Origin: Escherichia coli
Lineage (GTDB): Bacteria > Pseudomonadota > Gammaproteobacteria > Enterobacterales > Enterobacteriaceae
DNA length: 64,000 bases
Assembly: GCF_003018235.1 (NCBI RefSeq)
Contig: NZ_CP027437.1
Strand: one strand, 5' to 3'
Numbering within the stretch: position 1 is the first letter of the stretch; every line of letters begins with the position of its first letter. The notes under the pieces were generated by a model, which was given only the letters and a program-made list of their open reading frames with translations, ran no database searches and was not told where the DNA came from. Of this stretch, positions 3,812-54,762 are shown one piece after another. Both the position numbers and the translations under genes were made by a program.

Positions 3812-3843
3812 GTAAAGTAAAAGCCCCGCACGATGGCGAGGCT
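3812..3843 (-). terminator. Terminator about 80 nt downstream of the candidate late promoter (tR'-like)
   Basis: Minus strand: AGCCTCGC-catcgt-GCGGGGCT (8 bp, one G-U pair) followed by TTTACTTTAC. Confidence 0.5.
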
Positions 3844-3896
3844 GTTAATTCTTTGTCGACCAACAAAGCTATGGCGACGATATCAGATTTACATGA

Positions 3897-5094: not shown

Positions 5095-5381
5095 GCCTTA
5101 ATAACCCCCTCTTTCAGCCAGATAACCTGTGTTCTCGCCATACCTTCCAGCGCGCATTCTTTTGCATATCCAGCGTCAACAAAATGCGTGCGACGGTCGA
5201 TCTCATCGTGACAGGCAGAACATGCAATGGTGGCAATCAGGTCTGGCGGTTTGGTACCGGTGCCACACAATCCAGCCAGCCGGATATGTGCCAGTACAGA
5301 CGTTTCAGGGTTGCCATTACATATGCCAGGGATTCTTACCTGGCATTCCCGACCACGCGCTGCTTTTCTCAAATCAGCCAT
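5091..5381 (-). CDS. ybcO: YbcO (DUF1364, NinX-like nuclease)
   Basis: The 96-aa form starts [32 protein letters not shown], as in K-12 YbcO. Confidence 0.9.
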
Positions 5382-5544
5382 GATTCCTCCTTGCTGCCAG
5401 TCGCAACCATTTTTTATCAACCAGGCTGGCGGTATACCCTAGCAGCGTTGGTATTTCGGATGGCTTCAGCTCAGGCTTACGCTTACGACGATTTGGTACT
5501 CTGTAGATGTGTCCGTTCATGACCCGAATAAGCGGTGTAGTCAT
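5374..5544 (-). CDS. ninE: NinE-family protein (56 aa)
   Basis: [33 protein letters not shown]... The position between ybcN and ybcO is that of ninE. Its start overlaps the ybcN stop (TAATG). Confidence 0.65.
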   Translation of the reverse strand: MTTPLIRVMNGHIYRVPNRRKRKPELKPSEIPTLLGYTASLVDKKWLRLAARRNHG

Positions 5545-5999
5545 TACGCCTCCTGCTTGTCGCGCAGCAGCTGGAACTCGCAGCTCTGTGGAATAGTCAG
5601 GTGGCAACCAATATTCATCGCCCAGGCTTCAACCTTACACAGGAAGACATACATCTCTCCGGTATCAAGATCGGAGGTATGGCGTAACGACTGGATAGTG
5701 GTGATATCACCGGTTACGACATCAACCAGGTCTTTGGTTTCATAACCGAGATATGTGTGTTTGAGAGCATCTTTTACCCAAGCTGGAGTGGCGAACGTTT
5801 TACCCCTGCTGATGAGGTATTCACTGATTTCGCTGTACCACATGTGGCTGAGTGCATTCTGGGAAAGACTGCGTCTCTCGCGCCACGGTTTAAGCACCAT
5901 GCGAAAGCATTTGCCGTCCTCCAGATAAGGCTGGATCTGCCGACCGATAGCGGTGAAGTTACCGCGATGCAATTTGATACCATCTTGTGGGAGGTTCAC
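5544..5999 (-). CDS. ybcN: YbcN (NinB-position DNA-binding protein)
   Basis: 151 aa, GTG start. [41 protein letters not shown] matches recalled YbcN. Confidence 0.9.
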
Positions 6000-10067: not shown

Positions 10068-10765
10068 ACACTTGCTCCTTTCAGTCCGAACTTAGCTTTG
10101 ATTTCTGCGATCTTCGCCAGAGCCTGTGCACGATTTAGAGGTCTACCGCCCATGACAGGAAGTTGTTTTACTGGTTCAGGTATCGCCTCACCACGGTTAA
10201 TTCGCGCGGTCATACAGGACAGTTCATCGGCAGCCTTGCGCCGTAATTCCGCGTCAGTCAACGCATTGGCCCGCATGTTCTGATACAGGTTGGTAACCAG
10301 CCAGTAGTGCGCGTTTGATTTCCACGGATAAGACTCTGCATCCGGATACAGACCACGCTTCCGGCAATACTCGTAAACCATATCAACCAGCTCGCTGACG
10401 TTTGGCAGCCCGGCGGTAACGGATGCTTCTTCCCGGCACCATGCAACAAACTGCCCGGGTGATGGCAGAAATGGTCTATTCTGCCGACGGGCAACACGCA
10501 TTCCGGCGCTCACCTGTTCCATCGTGGTGATCCCGTTTTCCCGGAAAGCCAGAACCCACTGGCGGCGGATTTCGTTCAGTTCGTTCTGGTCACGATTAGC
10601 CAGGCTCGCCGGGAAAGTTGCCAGTAACTGGCTGAATACACCGTTGATTATCTGCGCTACCTGCTGTACCTGCGGCTTTTCGTCGTACTGTTCCGGCATG
10701 TTGTTGGCGATCCGACGCATCTGCTCACGGTCAAAGTTAATCATCTGTGCGGCGATGTTTTTCAT
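10064..10765 (-). CDS. P: Replication protein P (DnaB loader)
   Basis: 233 aa. MKNIAAQMINFDREQMRRIANNMPEQYDEKPQVQQVAQIINGVF matches recalled lambda P. Confidence 0.95.
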   Translation of the reverse strand: MKNIAAQMINFDREQMRRIANNMPEQYDEKPQVQQVAQIINGVFSQLLATFPASLANRDQNELNEIRRQWVLAFRENGITTMEQVSAGMRVARRQNRPFLPSPGQFVAWCREEASVTAGLPNVSELVDMVYEYCRKRGLYPDAESYPWKSNAHYWLVTNLYQNMRANALTDAELRRKAADELSCMTARINRGEAIPEPVKQLPVMGGRPLNRAQALAKIAEIKAKFGLKGASV

Positions 10766-11691
10766 AGATCCACCCCGTAAATCCAGTCTGTGTTTGTCAG
10801 GTCGAGTTTTGGTTTGCTAGCTGTCACGCCTGCCTGTTGCTTGTTACGGTTGATTTCGAGTTGGGTCCACTTGTCGCGGAGTTTGGCCGGACTTAGCACG
10901 TTACCGGACCAGAAGTTGTCCTGGCATGCCCAGCGGAACAGCACGCACATGTCGCGGTGGTTACGTCCGTCACGTTCACGCATCAGGCGGATATCGTTAG
11001 CCCACCCTGCAAAATTCGGTTTTCTGGCTGATGGCGCGATGGTCTTCACCATGTCAAACATCCACTCTGCGGCGGTCAGGTCTTCTGCTGTCCCCCACTT
11101 GCTGCCGCTCTGAATTGCAGCATCCGGTTTCACCACAGGAAGATCGTTTTCTGGTTGGTCAGAGGATTCGCCAGAATTCTCGGACGAAAAAGGTTTTATA
11201 TTGTCTTTTGTTAGTTTGTCTTTTGTGTTTACCTGATTCGGGTAAACGCCTTTACCTGATTTGGGTAAACTTTTTTTACCTGATTCAGGTAAATTTACCT
11301 CTTTCAGGTAAACTTTATTTTTCTTACCTGATTCGGGTAATGTTGACCATTCACTGACCACATTATTAATGCCGGTATTCCGCCCGCTCTGAATAAAAAT
11401 CCCACGCTTTACCAGAACACTTTTTGCAGCAGAACACTTGTGCGGCAATATCCCGGTTAATTCGGAAAGTTGCTCGTTGCTAACCCAATCCAGTTTTTTA
11501 TTAAAGCCATATGTTTTGCGCATGACAGCCAGAAAGACCAGAAGCTGGTGCTGTGTTAATCCGGCCAGCATCACAGCTTCCAGCAACTCATTTGCAATGC
11601 GCGTATAACCATCATCGAGATCTGCCACGCGCGGCTCCTTTTGTGCCGCATCCGGCACTGGAAAATTGAATATCTCAGCAGTGTTTGCCAT
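10762..11691 (-). CDS. O: Replication initiator O
   Basis: Starts MANTAEIFNF behind GGAGG. The C-terminal half (SSENSGESSDQPENDL.VVKPDAAIQSGSKWGTAEDLTAAEWMFDM...) matches recalled lambda O. The N-terminal (iteron-binding) half differs. Confidence 0.93.
   Translation of the reverse strand: MANTAEIFNFPVPDAAQKEPRVADLDDGYTRIANELLEAVMLAGLTQHQLLVFLAVMRKTYGFNKKLDWVSNEQLSELTGILPHKCSAAKSVLVKRGIFIQSGRNTGINNVVSEWSTLPESGKKNKVYLKEVNLPESGKKSLPKSGKGVYPNQVNTKDKLTKDNIKPFSSENSGESSDQPENDLPVVKPDAAIQSGSKWGTAEDLTAAEWMFDMVKTIAPSARKPNFAGWANDIRLMRERDGRNHRDMCVLFRWACQDNFWSGNVLSPAKLRDKWTQLEINRNKQQAGVTASKPKLDLTNTDWIYGVDL
11229..11340. repeat. ori iterons: five 17-bp TTACCT(N5)AGGTAA-type inverted-repeat units inside O, with an AT-rich tract at 11190-11228
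   Basis: Units at 11229-45, 11252-68, 11276-92, 11295-311 and 11324-40 (ttacctgattcgggtaa and variants). Confidence 0.85.
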
Positions 11692-11777
11692 AATTCCTCC
11701 CGCAATGAGTGTGTTACGATTTGCACCTGAAAGTCGGTTCTGTTCCAGCAGACCGGCTTTCGCCATTTCTGAACCTG

Positions 11778-12317
11778 TCATATTGCCCCCAGCATGGTGG
11801 TGACCATTGCCATCAGTGGACCAGCCAGATCCGGGTCCACTCGAAACATCGACACAATGCCTTCACTCATCTCCTTCAGTTTCTGGTGGCGTGGTGCGTT
11901 GAGAATGACCGCCTGCTTTGCCTCACTGAGTTCCTTTTCCATTTCAGCCAGCCGAGCCATGAAGCTATCCTGCTCAACTAGGTAACCGCGATATTCCAGC
12001 GGTAGTACCGCCAGAATTGCCGGGGTCAGTTCACGCACGTTATTTCTGTATTTTTCAGAATCGAATTTGTTATCGAGGAAGCGGAACAGCTTCTGGCGTG
12101 CACGGCTGACATCATCAGGGAAATCGATGGTGCCGCCGCCCTGCTCCCGATACTCATTCACAATGAGTGCGGCAACGACATCCTGATTATCTACAGCCGA
12201 CCAGGCGCGGACGGCATCACGGATTTTTTCGTGGCCTGGAGCTTGTTTTGTTTGAGAACGATTTATCACCGCAGTCGGGCTAAATCCGCTAGTCTGTTGG
12301 TATGTAAGTGGTTGCAT
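11778..12317 (-). CDS. YdaT-family regulator (functional CII equivalent)
   Basis: 179 aa. IVNEYREQGGGTIDF and LTPAILAVLPLEYRGYL resemble recalled Rac YdaT (ITEEYLRQGGGELPL, LIPAILAILPRELRHRL). It occupies the cII position between cro and O. Confidence 0.6.
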   Translation of the reverse strand: MQPLTYQQTSGFSPTAVINRSQTKQAPGHEKIRDAVRAWSAVDNQDVVAALIVNEYREQGGGTIDFPDDVSRARQKLFRFLDNKFDSEKYRNNVRELTPAILAVLPLEYRGYLVEQDSFMARLAEMEKELSEAKQAVILNAPRHQKLKEMSEGIVSMFRVDPDLAGPLMAMVTTMLGAI

Positions 12318-12386
12318 AATTGACTCCTTTAGTTTGAATTGACTGTTAAGTTGATTGCTTATTGTTAAAGAGCGTGAAATGGAAAT

Positions 12387-12617
12387 TTAAGCTGCGTTCT
12401 TTTCAGTGTGTGGAAACAACTTCGGAAGATCCGGGCGAATCTGGTATGCCTTCACTACTCCACCAGTAGCCGTAACAATGCTGCCGACATGTTCAGGGGA
12501 TACCTTTGCTTTGTTGTGAAGCCACTTATAGACGGCCTGCTGTGAAACTTCGCAGGCAGCGCCTAGTTTCTTTTGTGAACCAACGATATTGATCGCTGTT
12601 TTGATGGCTGGGTTCAT
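12387..12617 (-). CDS. Cro/YdaS-type HTH regulator
   Basis: 76 aa. GSQKKLGAACEVSQQAVYKWLH is a helix-turn-helix. It is the first gene of the rightward-equivalent operon, divergent from cI, with GGAGG 5 nt upstream of the ATG. Confidence 0.75.
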   Translation of the reverse strand: MNPAIKTAINIVGSQKKLGAACEVSQQAVYKWLHNKAKVSPEHVGSIVTATGGVVKAYQIRPDLPKLFPHTEKNAA

Positions 12618-12644: not shown

Positions 12645-12673
12645 AGATTAAAACCATGGTTGTTTTTAGTCAA
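12645..12673 (-). promoter_or_regulatory. Candidate pR
   Basis: Minus strand: TTGACT, 17 nt, TAATCT. An operator-like repeat sits in the spacer. Confidence 0.55.
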
Positions 12674-12713
12674 CAACCATTTTCGTTTGATGAAATAAAA
12701 CCTTGGTTGTACA
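12650..12713. promoter_or_regulatory. Candidate oR operators (three 17-bp sites; consensus about AAAACAAC-N4-GTTTT)
   Basis: Sites at 12650-66 (rc AAAACAACCATGGTTTT), 12670-86 (TCAACAACCATTTTCGT) and 12697-713 (rc TGTACAACCAAGGTTTT). The same motif recurs at oL. Confidence 0.5.
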
Positions 12714-12721: not shown

Positions 12722-13411
12722 ATGAAAACAACACTCTCAGAAAGACTTAAAGAAGCCAGATTAGCGCGAGGCCTTACACAAAAGGCGCTTGGGGATTTGG
12801 TCGGGGTTAGCCAAGCAGCTATTCAGAAAATCGAAACAGGGAAAGCTAACCAAACAACTAAAATCGTGGAGATCGCGAACGCTTTGGGTGTGCGCGCAGA
12901 ATGGTTATCTTCTGGCGTTGGAAATATGTCAGACAGTACAGTGCAACCAATACAAACAACTGTCAGCCATTCCAAATACTTTAAGATTGACGTTCTTGAT
13001 ATCGAAGTGAGTGCCGGGCCGGGAGTCATCAACCGTGAGTTTGTAGAAGTTCTACGCTCGGTTGAGTACTCGTTTGACGATGCTCGTCACATGTTCGATG
13101 GTAGGAAGGCAGAAAATATCCGCATCATTAACGTACGCGGTGACAGCATGTCAGGAACGATTGAACCTGGTGATCTTCTATTCGTTGATATCACGGTTAA
13201 ATCTTTCGACGGTGATGGTATCTATGCGTTTCTGTACGACGACACAGCCCATGTAAAGCGCCTGCAAATGATGAAGGATAAGCTGCTGGTTATCTCTGAT
13301 AACAAAAGCTACTCACCGTGGGACCCGATCGAGAAAGATGAGATGAACCGGGTATTTATCTTCGGGAAAGTTATTGGGAGCATGCCGCAGACGTATAGGA
13401 AGCATGGATAG
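12722..13411 (+). CDS. cI: CI-type prophage repressor (HTH_XRE plus S24 LexA-like peptidase)
   Basis: LSERLKEARLARGLTQKALGDLVGVSQAAIQKIETG is the HTH. EVSAGPG is a candidate Ala-Gly cleavage site. GDSMSGTIEPGD and VKRL carry the Ser/Lys dyad. Start moved from 12656 to 12722 so the operators stay intergenic. Confidence 0.85.
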   Translation: MKTTLSERLKEARLARGLTQKALGDLVGVSQAAIQKIETGKANQTTKIVEIANALGVRAEWLSSGVGNMSDSTVQPIQTTVSHSKYFKIDVLDIEVSAGPGVINREFVEVLRSVEYSFDDARHMFDGRKAENIRIINVRGDSMSGTIEPGDLLFVDITVKSFDGDGIYAFLYDDTAHVKRLQMMKDKLLVISDNKSYSPWDPIEKDEMNRVFIFGKVIGSMPQTYRKHG

Positions 13412-13491
13412 TACCAATTAAAAATTATCAACCGGGCATTGTGCTCATTCAGTAAAACAACTTAATTATTCATTTTAGAATGGAGAACTTA

Positions 13492-14553
13492 ATGGATACT
13501 TTAAAATATGAGAAATTCTCTGATTTTGATCACAATGACCCATTTTTTGACTCTTTAAAAAAAGATTATAAAGAGTTTCCTCTTTGGTTAGAAAAAAAAG
13601 CCAGAGAAGGAGAATCAGCTTATGTGCTCTATGATGACAAGCATAAAATCGAAGGTTTTATGTATCTAAAAGAAAATGATGATGCAAATGACATTAATCC
13701 AGCGCTCCCACCAGGACGTCATCTAAAGATAGGAACATTCAAATTTGAATCTAAAGGCACCCTTCGCGGACAACGATTTCTAAAAAAAGCGTTTGACCAT
13801 GCATTTTCATCAAAATCTGATGATATTTATGTTACTGTTTTCGACAAACACGTCCATCTAATAAAACTTTTCCAAACGTACGGATTTTACATTCATGGTG
13901 AAAAAGAAACACATAACGGGAAAGAGTTTGTATATGCGAGGTCTTTGCATGAGCCTTATGGTGATATTTTATTAGATTACCCTCGAATAATGACATCAAG
14001 GGCCAACAAATATTTACTGGCGATTTATCCCGAATATCACACTAGACTATTCCCTGATTCAAAACTTGTAAATGAATCACCAGATATTGTCAAAGATATA
14101 TCCCATGCTAACAGCATTCATAAAATTTACATATGTGGAATGCGTTCTGTGATGGGAATGAAAAGAGGAGATATCATTGTCATCTATAGAACCGGAGACA
14201 AAAAAGGGCCAGCTCGCTATCGTTCTGTAGCCAGTACATTATGTGTAGTTGAGAGCGTAAAAAATATTTCTGAATTTTTAAGCGAAGATAGTTTTGTAGA
14301 CTATTGTATTCGTTTTAGCGTATTTTCTGAAGATGAACTCAGAAAAATCTATAAAGAACGTCGATACCCTTTCATTATAAGATTCACATACAATCTGTCT
14401 TTGCCAAAGAGACCCAATCGTGCTATTTTAATAGATCATGTGGGGCTAAATGGTTCGCGTGCATTCCGATGGAGTCACTTTAAACTCACAAATGAGCAGT
14501 TCTTAAAGATCATCGAGTTAGGCAAGATAAATGAAAGTTTTATTATCCATTAA
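13492..14553 (+). CDS. Two-domain accessory protein: GNAT-like N-terminal half plus PUA-like (EVE/ASCH-like) C-terminal half
   Basis: 353 aa (357 if started at 13480). GTLRGQRFLKKAFDHA and LIKLFQTYGFYIHGE resemble GNAT motif A and the following GF strand. MKRGDIIVIYRTG...YRSVASTLCVVESV resembles a PUA-like beta-barrel. Domain calls were made by eye. The gene is visibly AT-rich. Confidence 0.55.
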   Translation: MDTLKYEKFSDFDHNDPFFDSLKKDYKEFPLWLEKKAREGESAYVLYDDKHKIEGFMYLKENDDANDINPALPPGRHLKIGTFKFESKGTLRGQRFLKKAFDHAFSSKSDDIYVTVFDKHVHLIKLFQTYGFYIHGEKETHNGKEFVYARSLHEPYGDILLDYPRIMTSRANKYLLAIYPEYHTRLFPDSKLVNESPDIVKDISHANSIHKIYICGMRSVMGMKRGDIIVIYRTGDKKGPARYRSVASTLCVVESVKNISEFLSEDSFVDYCIRFSVFSEDELRKIYKERRYPFIIRFTYNLSLPKRPNRAILIDHVGLNGSRAFRWSHFKLTNEQFLKIIELGKINESFIIH

Positions 14554-14908
14554 GCCTGAGTTTGCAGAAAAAATATTGAACGGAACAAAGCGGTTCGAGT
14601 TTCGTAAAGGTATATTCAAAAATCCGCAAATTAGCACCGTTGTTATTTATGCCACGATGCCATTAGGTAAAGTTGTTGGTCAATTCCGTATTGAATCAAT
14701 ACTAAGTGACGAACCGGAATCTCTTTGGAAAAAGACGGAAAAACACGCAGGTATTTCTAAGCAATTTTATGACTCATATTATTCAGGTAGAGAAAAGGCC
14801 TACGCAATAAAAATTGGTGAAGTGGAAAGATATAAAGAACCAATTCCTATCTCTGCTCTAGGTAGTAATATTAAGCCACCACAATCATATCTTTACCTAC
14901 CTGCGTAA
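14531..14908 (+). CDS. ASCH-domain protein (PUA-like fold)
   Basis: 125 aa. MKVLLSIKPEFAEKILNGTKRFEFRK...VVIYATMPLGKVVGQFRIESI has the typical ASCH N-terminal pattern. It overlaps the upstream gene by 23 nt. Confidence 0.7.
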   Translation: MKVLLSIKPEFAEKILNGTKRFEFRKGIFKNPQISTVVIYATMPLGKVVGQFRIESILSDEPESLWKKTEKHAGISKQFYDSYYSGREKAYAIKIGEVERYKEPIPISALGSNIKPPQSYLYLPA

Positions 14909-14912
14909 GAAT

Positions 14913-14939
14913 CCCGGCCACCGTGCCGGGTTTTCTTTT
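14913..14939 (+). terminator. Rho-independent terminator of the cI-accessory operon
   Basis: CCCGGC-caccgt-GCCGGG followed by TTTTCTTTT. Confidence 0.75.
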
Positions 14940-15054
14940 ATCCCCTCCCCTCATCACATATACCGTTCAAAAAACCACCACAATCTCCCTTCAGTTATCG
15001 CTATGCGATGCAAGTCACAAAATAAACCCATCCTAAATACAACCAGTTACATCT

Positions 15055-15112
15055 AAAACAACCAATAAAACAACTTTTGTTGTTGACGATAAAACAACTA
15101 TAGTTTTAAATA
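15055..15112 (+). promoter_or_regulatory. Candidate oL/pL
   Basis: Operator-like AAAACAACTTTTGTTGT (15067-83) and AAAACAACTATAGTTTT (15091-107), plus a partial site at 15055-71. TTGACG (15083-88), 18 nt, TAAATA (15107-12). Confidence 0.45.
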
Positions 15113-15388
15113 AATTCATCGCAACAACACAACGATACGGCAACCACCTGATTCACCGTTGCGATGACCGCTTAGATCCGCAGCTTGAATTTCAGCAGGC
15201 TCCGGGGAGTGCGAGGGGTGAAGCGGACGCGTGAACGTCGGTGTGACCAGCTGAAATCAACTCAACACTTCATACCTCAGTCGCTTCAACGAGGCGGCTT
15301 AGTTATGACAACCGGCGGCCATCCACCGCCTGAATACGCGCAGAAGTCTCCATATGTTCAGCAGCCCAGCTTACGGGCAGGAGTTTTT

Positions 15389-15595
15389 ATGGTTCATCAA
15401 CATTATGGAACGCAGACCGTTAATCGAGGTGCGGTCATGCCAGGAATGCTGGTCAAACACAAAGATGGTACCTGGACTGCATCAGCTAATTTACGCGGAC
15501 GGCTTTATCTGCATCGCGGCATCGAGCGCACTTATACCCGTGATTTGCTCGTGGAAGTTTTTCTCGACGGACGCGGTAACGGCCTGAATCACTAA
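15389..15595 (+). CDS. Hypothetical early-left protein (68 aa)
   Basis: GGAG 5 nt before the ATG at 15389. In frame with the longer TTG-started ORF 15185..15595. No family recognised. Confidence 0.4.
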
Positions 15596-15670
15596 TCCCC
15601 TTTCCTGTTTTCCTAATCAGCCTGGCATTTCGCGGGCGATATTTTCACAGCCATTTTCAGGAGGTCAGCC

Positions 15671-18713: not shown

Positions 18714-19056
18714 GGCCTGTCAGTTTCTTAAGATATCCAGACCAACCGCCACCAACTGGATACGAACAGGCCGCCTACAGGCAACACGTAAAGATCCAAC
18801 CAAGTCAAAATCTCCTTACCTCACAACACGGCAAGCCTGCATTGCGGCGCTTCAGTCTCCGCTGCATACTGTCCAGGTGAGCGCGGGTGATGGCATAACA
18901 GAGGAAAGAAAATGTCACTCTTCCGCAGAAATGAAATATGGTATGCCTCGTATTCGCTCCCGGGCGGGAAACGAATTAAGGAATCTCTTGGCACAAAGGA
19001 CAAGCGGCAAGCTCAGGAGTTGCACGACAAGCGAAAAGCAGAACTCTGGCGAGTAG
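18685..19056 (+). CDS. xisD: Excisionase (AlpA/MerR-like HTH), XisD-like
   Basis: [37 protein letters not shown] is a winged-helix excisionase motif. The 3' 145 nt overlap int in another frame, so the true stop or function of the tail is uncertain. Confidence 0.65.
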
Positions 19057-20075
19057 AAAAGCTAGGGGATTTACCTGATGTCACTTTTGAAGAGGCCTGC
19101 CTAAGATGGCTTGAGGAAAAAGCTGATAAAAAATCTCTCGATTCAGATAAAAGCCGGATTGAGTTCTGGCTTGAACATTTTGAGGGTATAAGGCTTAAAG
19201 ATATCTCGGAGGCAAAGATTTACTCTGCTGTAAGCAGAATGCATAACAGAAAGACGAAAGAAATATGGAAACAGAAAGTTCAGGCCGCCATCAGGAAAGG
19301 TAAAGAACCGCCTGTTTATGAACCAAAGCCAGTATCAACTCAGACAAAGGCAAAGCATCTTGCCATGATAAAGGCCATTCTCCGTGCTGCAGAACGCGAC
19401 TGGAAGTGGCTGGAAAAAGCGCCTGTCATCAAGATACCAGCGGTCAGAAACAAGCGAGTCAGATGGCTGGAAAAGGAGGAAGCAAAACGCCTTATTGATG
19501 AGTGCCCCGAACCACTGAAATCTGTCGTCAAGTTTGCGCTGGCAACTGGTCTGAGAAAGTCGAACATCATAAATCTGGAATGGCAACAAATCGACATGCA
19601 GCGACGAGTTGCCTGGGTGAATCCAGAAGAGAGCAAATCAAACCGCGCCATTGGTGTGGCGCTGAACGATACCGCCTGTAAAGTGTTGCGTGATCAAATA
19701 GGCAAGCATCACAAATGGGTGTTTGTACATACCAAGGCGGCTAAGCGAGCAGATGGAACATCAACGCCTGCGGTCAGGAAGATGCGCATCGACAGCAAGA
19801 CATCATGGCTATCAGCTTGTCGTCGTGCAGGAATTGAAGATTTCCGTTTCCATGACCTCAGACACACCTGGGCAAGCTGGCTGATTCAGTCAGGCGTCCC
19901 ATTATCAGTGCTTCAGGAAATGGGCGGATGGGAGTCCATAGAAATGGTTCGTAGGTATGCTCACCTTGCGCCTAATCATTTGACAGAGCATGCGAGGAAA
20001 ATAGACGACATTTTTGGTGATAATGTCCCAAATATGTCCCACTCTGGAATTATGGAGGATATAAAGAAGGCGTAA
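18912..20075 (+). CDS. intD: Tyrosine integrase IntD
   Basis: 387 aa. The C-terminal [39 protein letters not shown] carries the R..H..R..Y catalytic signature. Adjacent to argU. Confidence 0.95.
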
Positions 20076-41578: not shown

Positions 41579-41620
41579 GTCATACCACTCGCCTGATTAT
41601 TTTTAGCTATGTTGGATTTT

Positions 41621-41647
41621 GCCACGGTTTATACCGTGGCTTTTTTT
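41621..41647 (+). terminator. allE terminator
   Basis: GCCACGG-tttata-CCGTGGC followed by TTTTTTT. Confidence 0.75.
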
Positions 41648-41662
41648 GTAGTCAATTCAGGT

Positions 41663-54671: not shown

Positions 54672-54762
54672 ATAAAAAAACCGACATGACAGTCGGTTTT
54701 TTTATTTTTTCCGCCCAAGACTTGGTGGTTCCGGGCAGAAATGAAACAGTCCTCATCTAGCA
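54672..54762 (-). ncRNA. Candidate ~90-nt antisense (antitoxin) sRNA of a type I toxin-antitoxin pair
   Basis: A near-consensus promoter lies just upstream and the terminator at 54674-54710 downstream. Its 5' end (TGCTAGATGAGGACTG) is complementary to 54933-54948 in the toxin 5' UTR. Confidence 0.45.
54674..54710. terminator. Bidirectional rho-independent terminator (selU on plus; candidate sRNA on minus)
   Basis: AAAAAAACCGAC-atgaca-GTCGGTTTTTTTATTTTTT, with A-tract and T-tract flanks. Confidence 0.75.

Follow-up and report, generated by a model that had tools for sequence, protein, structure and literature searches.

Identity of the Cassette

In the present study, we analyzed a two-gene cassette at positions 13412-14939 of a 64,000-nucleotide (nt) stretch of Escherichia coli DNA (RefSeq assembly GCF_003018235.1, contig NZ_CP027437.1), and this whole stretch is referred to below as the window. 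The cassette lies directly behind the cI-type repressor gene of a lambda-like prophage. As judged from its sequence matches, it is a copy of the GevTA/PDC-M11 module, which was already known as a sequence feature. On balance, we favored the reading that GevTA is a toxin-antitoxin (TA)-type cassette expressed in the lysogen from the position that rexA-rexB occupy in lambda, in which gene 1 (GevT) would be an acetylating toxin and gene 2 (GevA) would probably be an eraser of the acetyl-amide.

Both proteins were assigned to PDC-M11 by the PADLOC scan. Gene 1 matched PDC-M11A with an E value of 2.1e-133 (residues 6-356 against profile positions 10-356 of 357) and phrog_6345 at 1e-186, and gene 2 matched PDC-M11B at E 6.8e-52 (residues 1-123 against profile positions 1-122 of 132) as well as the Pfam ASCH model at E 2.5e-8. 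At E <= 1e-3, gene 1 was matched by 1631 protein clusters and gene 2 by 2443 (clustered at 90% identity), so the two genes are not chance open reading frames (ORFs). The initial annotation of this DNA had not recognized the pair as a named system, a statement that is overturned by the PADLOC result and by the earlier prediction of such operons as TA systems (Iyer et al. 2013; Bell et al. 2020). Bell et al. (2020) described an extensive class of (PIN)-GNAT-EVE proteins with an ASCH protein encoded in nearly every one of the operons, predicted these operons to be TA systems, found the PIN-less GNAT-EVE form to be common in beta- and gamma-proteobacterial prophages, and credited Iyer et al. (2013) with the first description of (PIN)-GNAT-EVE plus ASCH operons. 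A 2026 preprint listed PDC-M11 among the "phage defense candidate systems" of an E. coli O157:H7 strain; PDC systems are not described in the PADLOC 2022 paper.

Six phage records contained the 1528-nt region without a single difference (100% identity), and two others matched it at 99.9% identity or better. One of the latter two, PhiR47_2 (PV340567.1), names the genes "GevT toxin" and "GevA antitoxin". In the published literature that was searched, no paper used the GevT/GevA names or reported experiments on the pair. A megablast search found the cassette at >= 99% identity in 274 of 5426 complete E. coli genomes (about 5%), always on the chromosome. This count understates the family in the species because a second E. 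coli GevT lineage exists. That lineage (P0086 and P0111) is 56-57% identical to the window copy, with 195 member sequences in one cluster. The window adds no new sequence feature: its cassette is on record already, occurs widely and is identical to genes annotated in phages. The remaining interest is the biology of a small cassette that sits in a classic exclusion slot, recurs in about one complete E. coli genome in twenty and is found in many phyla.

Locus Architecture and Expected Expression

Two plus-strand genes were found between the end of cI (13411) and a terminator, upstream of the candidate leftward operator and promoter (oL/pL); the coordinates of all features are collected in Table 1. 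The ORF coordinates agreed with the two overlapping genes of the initial annotation, the overlap being 23 nt (14531-14553), and every peptide string quoted there was present in the translations. Its remark that the genes are AT-rich relative to their neighbors also held, with a GC fraction of 0.31-0.37 over 13300-14800 versus 0.44-0.55 in the flanks. The repressor was identified as cI by the annotation at the equivalent 229-aa coordinates in PV340567.1. A longer cI ORF from 12656 starts within the operator palindrome (12656-12680) and is probably not the one translated.

The initial annotation had placed the pair in the rexAB slot, after cI and before the terminator and oL/pL, and this placement was borne out by the cI-type repressor, the stem at 14913-14939 and the AAAACAAC repeats. 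The terminator consists of a 6-bp all-GC stem (14913-14930) followed by TTTTCTTTT. Downstream of the candidate pL, we found a Kil-like gene, gam, bet (RecT) and exo (YqaJ). Because the gene order is cI, the pair, terminator, oL/pL and kil/gam/bet/exo, we take the position, by comparison with the established lambda map, to be the lambda rexA-rexB slot.

The 8-mer AAAACAAC was observed in 12 copies in the window versus 3.4 expected. Three of these clustered at 15055-15098, another lay within the 25-nt oR palindrome (12656-12680, in the cro-cI intergenic region), where it overlaps the start of the longest cI ORF, and one was located in the spacer between cI and gene 1, at 13454-13461. The distribution suggested that the copies are probably operator half-sites of the repressor. 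An operator search by inverted-repeat pattern was discarded, since its count was no better than chance, and the 8-mer was informative instead.

On the plus strand of the cI-gene 1 spacer, neither a promoter-like nor a terminator-like site was predicted by a consensus scan, which is weak evidence. The 68-nt gap from cI to the first possible start codon was seen again in 33 loci. The genes lie on the same strand as cI, with no such site before gene 1 and a strong terminator after the pair, so gevT-gevA are likely read through from the cI transcript and hence made in the lysogen. Rfam searches in and around the cassette, both at the gathering threshold and at E <= 1, returned only noise.

The ORF of gene 1 opens at an ATG at 13480 (13480-14553, 357 aa), and an in-frame ATG at 13492 gives a protein of 353 aa. 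We consider 13492 the most likely true start because nearly all homologues are 350-357 aa long and align from that Met, because a GGAGA sits 6 nt upstream of it, and because nucleotide similarity to seven diverged cassettes starts exactly there.

Table 1. Coordinates of the cassette and of prophage features in the window.
Feature	Position	Strand	Evidence or remarks
cI-type prophage repressor (HTH_3 + Peptidase_S24)	12722..13411	+	Pfam Peptidase_S24 1.5e-18, HTH_3 6.5e-13
cI-gene 1 spacer	13412..13491	+	consensus scan for promoter/terminator sites
Gene 1 (gevT / PDC-M11A), predicted toxin	13492..14553	+	353 aa; PADLOC, phrog_6345, homologues, GenBank name
Predicted GNAT acetyltransferase domain of gene 1, residues about 1-152	13492..13947	+	
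Predicted PUA-like (ASCH/EVE-type) beta-barrel domain of gene 1, residues about 173-353	14008..14550	+	
Gene 2 (gevA / PDC-M11B), predicted antitoxin	14531..14908	+	125 aa; stand-alone ASCH; Pfam, PADLOC, ZmASCH, GenBank name
Intrinsic terminator closing the cI-gevT-gevA unit	14913..14939	+	CCCGGC-loop-GCCGGG stem + T-run
Candidate oL/pL, right border of the slot	15055..15110	+	three AAAACAAC repeats + TTGACG-17 nt-TTAAAT
int	18912-20075		by position; integrase annotation in matching phage record
tRNA-Arg, marks prophage end	20091-20167		

Gene Pairing and Genetic Behavior

The comparison covered 80 loci taken from species-representative genomes and another 80 taken from viral contigs. Full-length homologues at 45-60% identity occurred in Gammaproteobacteria, Betaproteobacteria, Bacteroidota, Bacillota, Acidobacteriota, Verrucomicrobiota, Campylobacterota and others. 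The ASCH gene was directly next on the same strand in 156 of 161 loci, across many phyla. With spacing reckoned from the first possible start codon, it overlapped gene 1 in 155 of these 156 loci, in 98 of them by exactly 23 nt. In three Vibrio/Photobacterium loci (L013, L017 and L022), the ASCH gene lies downstream of GevT in convergent orientation on the opposite strand.

It was observed that gene 1 was split or truncated with gene 2 intact in four loci (L046, L104, L135 and L150). In addition, gene 1 of E. coli E138 (NZ_AP022351.1; L164:1581-3417) is interrupted by IS1X4 in an immunity region that is otherwise intact, gene 2 included. No intact gene 1 with a damaged gene 2 was found among the loci compared, contig ends apart. 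E. coli SCU-485 (H28) was set aside as a case of damaged gene 2, being uninformative: gam and bet of that assembly also carry frameshifts.

In an independent transposon insertion sequencing (Tn-seq) study of Dickeya dadantii 3937, the ASCH gene Dda3937_01763 ("unknown phage protein") was scored as essential and its neighbor on the same strand, Dda3937_01764 ("Acetyltransferase, GNAT family"), as growth-defect; the CI repressor Dda3937_01765, which adjoins the pair, was also scored as essential. The D. dadantii 3937 proteins that bear these names, ADM97072.1 and ADM97071.1, fell in the 90%-identity clusters of P0099 and P0160, which share 57% and 63% identity with the window's gene 1 and gene 2, respectively. 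An ASCH gene that is last in its operon and essential is as expected of an antitoxin. Collectively, the strict pairing, the asymmetric disruption, the essential Dickeya ASCH gene and the GenBank names lend indirect support to the toxin/antidote reading put forward in the initial annotation, and the genetic behavior of the orthologous pair is consistent with a TA system.

Domain Architecture of GevT

The initial annotation had described gene 1 by eye as a GNAT and PUA-like fusion and gene 2 as a stand-alone ASCH domain, and structure prediction confirmed both. The model of gene 1, built from a 35-sequence alignment, had a mean predicted local distance difference test (pLDDT) score of 90.5, and in it gene 1 is a GNAT domain fused to a C-terminal PUA-like (ASCH/EVE-type) domain. 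In an alignment with PaiA, the acetyl-CoA loop of GevT reads K-G-T-L-R-G; G93 is its sole invariant Gly, and R95, K98 and K99 are invariant. The GNAT fold of GevT is certain; its catalytic competence is not.

When the C-terminal domain of gene 1 was compared with the gene 2 family by profile-profile alignment, only the first strand and helix were aligned (LLSIxPEF; beta1-alpha1; 29 columns). Paralogy of the two was considered on this basis (E 2e-4, probability 44%), which is suggestive and was not relied on. In the same alignment, nothing in the C-domain corresponded to the conserved Lys/Glu pair of gene 2. Lacking this catalytic pair of ASCH proteins, the C-domain looks like a binding module rather than an enzyme.

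GevA and ASCH Chemistry

The model of gene 2 adopted an ASCH fold with a pLDDT of 95.4. By a wide margin, its nearest solved relative was ZmASCH of Zymomonas mobilis (PDB 5GUQ/5GUS), with a profile E value of 2e-18, a template modeling (TM) score of 0.9 and 34% identity. GevA keeps the G-x-K-x-x-E-x-R octapeptide of ZmASCH, which places it in the Glu-type "GKER" subgroup. In GevA, the octapeptide reads G18-T-K20-R-F-E23-F-R25, and G18, K20, E23 and R25 were invariant in 26 diverse homologues; Y40 and S119, the equivalents of ZmASCH Tyr47 and Ser128, were also invariant. The two proteins differ in that Lys53 of ZmASCH aligns to an invariant Gly in the GevA family, where the next residue is a Lys that is not invariant, and in that the literature consulted on ZmASCH documents neither a partner nor a TA role for it.

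According to a 2026 preprint, in vitro assays of 19 ASCH proteins, ZmASCH included, showed removal of N4-acetylcytidine (ac4C) from E. coli tRNA by every one of them; in Glu-type members, the Lys and Glu of the octapeptide were essential for this activity. By analogy with these proteins, GevA is a plausible ac4C-type eraser of a mark that GevT would make.

The initial annotation had compared gene 2 with YqfB. This E. coli ac4C amidohydrolase uses Thr24 as nucleophile, together with Lys21 and Glu74. Both proteins have the ASCH fold, and the octapeptide Lys and Arg are conserved; however, the Thr24 nucleophile is replaced by the invariant Glu23 in GevA, and the TM score was only 0.58, with 14% identity. 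A YqfB-type amidohydrolase identity for GevA was rejected, as the Thr nucleophile is missing from the octapeptide and the Thr-Lys-Glu triad is not present. The specific comparison with YqfB was thus imprecise and has to give way to one with ZmASCH-type proteins, and the deacetylase idea behind it survives through the results of the preprint on ZmASCH-type proteins.

Proposed Mechanism and Alternative Explanations

Under the reading of GevTA as an acetylating toxin with its antitoxin, the PUA-like domain of GevT would dock the toxin on nucleic acid, most likely tRNA or another RNA, and the GNAT domain would acetylate an amine there, the N4 of cytidine and the amino group of aminoacyl-tRNA being candidates. 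Cytidine N4 in tRNA, another RNA base and the aminoacyl amine are all possible targets. Such acetylation would stall translation. GevA, translationally coupled to GevT, would keep the toxin harmless in the lysogen, probably by hydrolyzing the acetyl-amide written by GevT through its invariant Lys/Glu pair, in a writer-eraser arrangement like that of DarT/DarG. The payoff would be abortive infection or exclusion of superinfecting phage once the balance is upset, or mere addiction to the prophage. The anti-phage role is a candidate one, based on the slot, the PADLOC candidate listing and the defense-rich neighborhoods found elsewhere, and prophage addiction without an anti-phage effect is equally compatible with the data. 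The most specific form of the proposal, in which GevT N-acetylates an RNA base or aminoacyl group, GevA reverses this and phage infection tips the balance toward abortive infection, is offered tentatively, and we consider it rather doubtful as a whole.

Several observations weigh against the TA reading with GevT as an acetylating toxin. The names GevT and GevA are unreferenced annotation from a GenBank record alone, and no published toxicity, rescue or phage-protection phenotype for the pair was found in the literature searched. GNAT motif A is degenerate, with one invariant Gly in the acetyl-CoA loop of the PaiA alignment. No Pfam acetyltransferase model matched gene 1, and the position of the usual general-acid Tyr is a Phe in that alignment. 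The disruption asymmetry of five versus zero is a matter of small counts. In Dickeya, the GNAT gene was scored as growth-defect rather than non-essential, which is not the textbook pattern of a toxin; this score may have come from insertions that are polar on the antitoxin gene and leave an active N-terminal GNAT domain, or from hidden Markov model smoothing, as the gene is flanked by two essential ones. The original description of ZmASCH was that of a Mg-dependent single-stranded RNA (ssRNA) ribonuclease, to whose activity Tyr47 and Ser128 contribute, and the 2026 preprint found it inactive on the free nucleoside and unable to lower ac4C in vivo.

The partner need not be an enzyme. In a sequestration-type (type II-like) TA system, GevA would bind GevT directly or use its ASCH barrel to compete with it for the same nucleic-acid site, with no deacetylation, and might regulate the operon. 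The tight translational coupling across the 23-nt overlap, which would give stoichiometric co-production, fits this explanation, as do the ZmASCH-like fold and similar beta1-alpha1 motif shared by the GevT C-domain and GevA, through which the two could compete or pair, and the finding that ZmASCH binds nucleic acids. Moreover, some sources label the ASCH protein a "predicted transcriptional regulator", and Bell et al. (2020) proposed a regulatory role and noted HTH-ASCH (helix-turn-helix) fusions in alpha-proteobacteria. We nevertheless regard sequestration as unlikely. The octapeptide Lys, Glu and Arg and the Tyr47/Ser128 equivalents are invariant, which would be needless for a mere binding partner, and the lambdoid cassette seemingly has no promoter of its own on which autoregulation could act. 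Enzymatic reversal was favored over sequestration because the residues of the GevA octapeptide and pocket do not vary across phyla, and because ASCH proteins including ZmASCH are reported to remove tRNA ac4C in vitro.

The other explanations assign different tasks to the two proteins. Acyl base modification by Mom of phage Mu is the model for a phage-serving activity, in which GevT would acetylate a DNA or RNA base to evade restriction or mark self, GevA would read or trim the modification, and toxicity would be a side-effect. DNA-base acetylation by these fusions was proposed by Iyer et al. (2013), as related by Bell et al. (2020), who suggested that GNAT-EVE proteins may protect phages against host restriction-modification (RM) systems and noted that PUA-like, EVE and ASCH domains bind modified bases; at one other locus, a Mom-family protein is encoded upstream. 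We judge this explanation improbable, given that the cassette lies on the repressor transcript with its own terminator before pL, as a lysogen rather than a lytic-replication product would, that the essential Dickeya ASCH gene points to a standing toxic activity needing constant neutralizing, and that the pair also occurs outside prophages, beside defense genes. The same essentiality argues against reversed roles, in which GevA would be the effector, an ssRNA endoribonuclease like ZmASCH, and GevT a sensor or inhibitor that acetylates, for example, GevA or its RNA target: loss of a nuclease that acts as the effector should be tolerated. The disrupted gene was also always gene 1 and never gene 2, and the GenBank toxin label is on gene 1. 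The close match to ZmASCH (E 2e-18, TM 0.9), the conservation in GevA of the Tyr47 and Ser128 that contribute to its reported Mg-dependent ssRNA cleavage, and the use of the term endoribonuclease by the Dickeya authors for their ASCH protein speak for reversed roles, which we nonetheless consider highly improbable.

Distribution and Genomic Neighborhood

A CI-type repressor was directly upstream of the pair on the same strand in 57 of 79 viral contigs. These repressors belong to four or more immunity types and include S24-type as well as short Phage_CI_repr-type proteins. In species genomes, a CI-type repressor was directly upstream in only 3 of 76 loci; use of the repressor slot is thus customary for enterobacterial prophages and does not characterize the family as a whole. 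A P2-like Dickeya prophage carries the pair between its C repressor gene and int, on the strand of the repressor. Between diverged lambdoid copies, similarity extends from the gene 1 start codon to 14909-14945; the two genes and the terminator together make up the mobile unit.

Elsewhere, the immediate neighbors included integrases as well as known or candidate defense proteins, namely SoFic, ThsA, GajB, type I and III RM systems, mad2 and several PDC-S systems, in a tally made without a formal background control. AAA_17/AAA_18 kinase-like proteins (176-192 aa) were encoded directly upstream of GevT in 8 of 139 neighbors, at the non-prophage loci L024, L066 and L075 and at others. They had a weak PADLOC match to VakA and fit the accessory ATPase noted by Bell et al. 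One further upstream neighbor of GevT (alignment A3) matched the Mom family PF25680 at E 7e-73.

Two additional proteins recurred upstream of GevT homologues. A protein of 357-379 aa with the N-terminus MSRSFAVWGCR... was encoded directly upstream at L162:3893-4969 and at L008, L010, L012, L137-L142 and L150, in P2-like and other prophages. Its distance to GevT was 14-36 nt in most of these loci; in L150, whose gene 1 carries an N-terminal truncation, the ORF call put it at 169 nt. The protein had no Pfam or PADLOC match and may represent either a third component of the system or cargo in its own right. A 260-aa protein abuts or overlaps the GevT start in L011 and L143-L154 (about 5216-5998 in each); its sole match was a weak one to PADLOC SduA/DUF4263 (E 7e-4).

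Other Features of the Prophage and the Window

Between pL and gam (14940-15670), no N-like antiterminator ORF was found. The 128-aa ORF at 15209-15595 had no Pfam match, and RefSeq has only a 68-aa cell-division inhibitor (Kil-like) there, at about 15389-15595. The leader at 15111-15390 had a folding z score of -0.63, which is not unusual, and matched no Rfam family. As in the Rac prophage, a YdaS-type protein of 76 aa and a YdaT-type protein of 179 aa occupy the cro/cII positions (11778-12617) on the minus strand, and O (Phage_rep_O) is next, at 10762-11781. Three Rfam families scored above the gathering threshold in the window, all on the minus strand: isrJ at 3820-3893, STnc480 at 41585-41651 and AgrB at 54672-54760. 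Of these small RNAs, STnc480 and AgrB are located past the end of the prophage, in chromosomal DNA of the bacterium.

Comparison with Known Systems

Compared with PDC-M11 and the GNAT-EVE plus ASCH operons, the window pair has the same domain architecture, gene order, overlap and prophage association, and nothing essential is different. The window copy is the short form, without the N-terminal PIN-type extension (profile positions about 1-150) of some PDC-M11A models, and it lacks the AAA_17 partner seen in some loci.

The likeness to lambda RexAB is one of position and composition. Both pairs lie directly after cI on the same strand, with a terminator before oL/pL and, presuming co-transcription, expected expression in the lysogen, and both are AT-rich accessory cargo. 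RexAB consists of a sensor and a membrane ion channel, whereas GevT and GevA are predicted to be soluble, nucleic-acid-directed enzymes. There is no sequence or fold relationship between the two pairs, and membership of RexAB was rejected because neither protein matched a Rex family in the Pfam and PADLOC scans.

With the GNAT/RHH (ribbon-helix-helix) TA systems TacAT, AtaRT, KacAT and ItaRT, the cassette has in common a GNAT-fold toxin with a small adjacent neutralizing partner, and acetylation of a tRNA-linked amine is plausible, by analogy, as shared chemistry. GevT differs in being twice as large and in carrying a PUA-like domain, and its partner is a downstream ASCH protein, not an upstream DUF1778/RHH protein; the gene upstream is cI. 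No TacT/AtaT-type chain was found among the PDB sequence matches of GevT at E <= 10 or among its top 50-60 structural matches. The likeness of the GNAT half to TacT/AtaT toxins drawn in the initial annotation found no specific support in these searches, and with no DUF1778/RHH antitoxin upstream either, membership of GevT in that class was rejected.

DarTG, an anti-phage system, pairs the ADP-ribosyltransferase DarT with the macrodomain protein DarG. It has no homology to GevTA, and the likeness is a functional analogy only, in which the toxin encoded first would write a nucleic-acid mark and the partner would erase it. The invariant catalytic pair of GevA and the report of tRNA ac4C deacetylation by ASCH proteins make this writer-eraser model sharply and cheaply testable. 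If it is true, GevTA would be the first RNA-acetylation counterpart of DarTG, and a physiological role would be assigned for the first time to a Glu-type ASCH deacetylase from bacteria.

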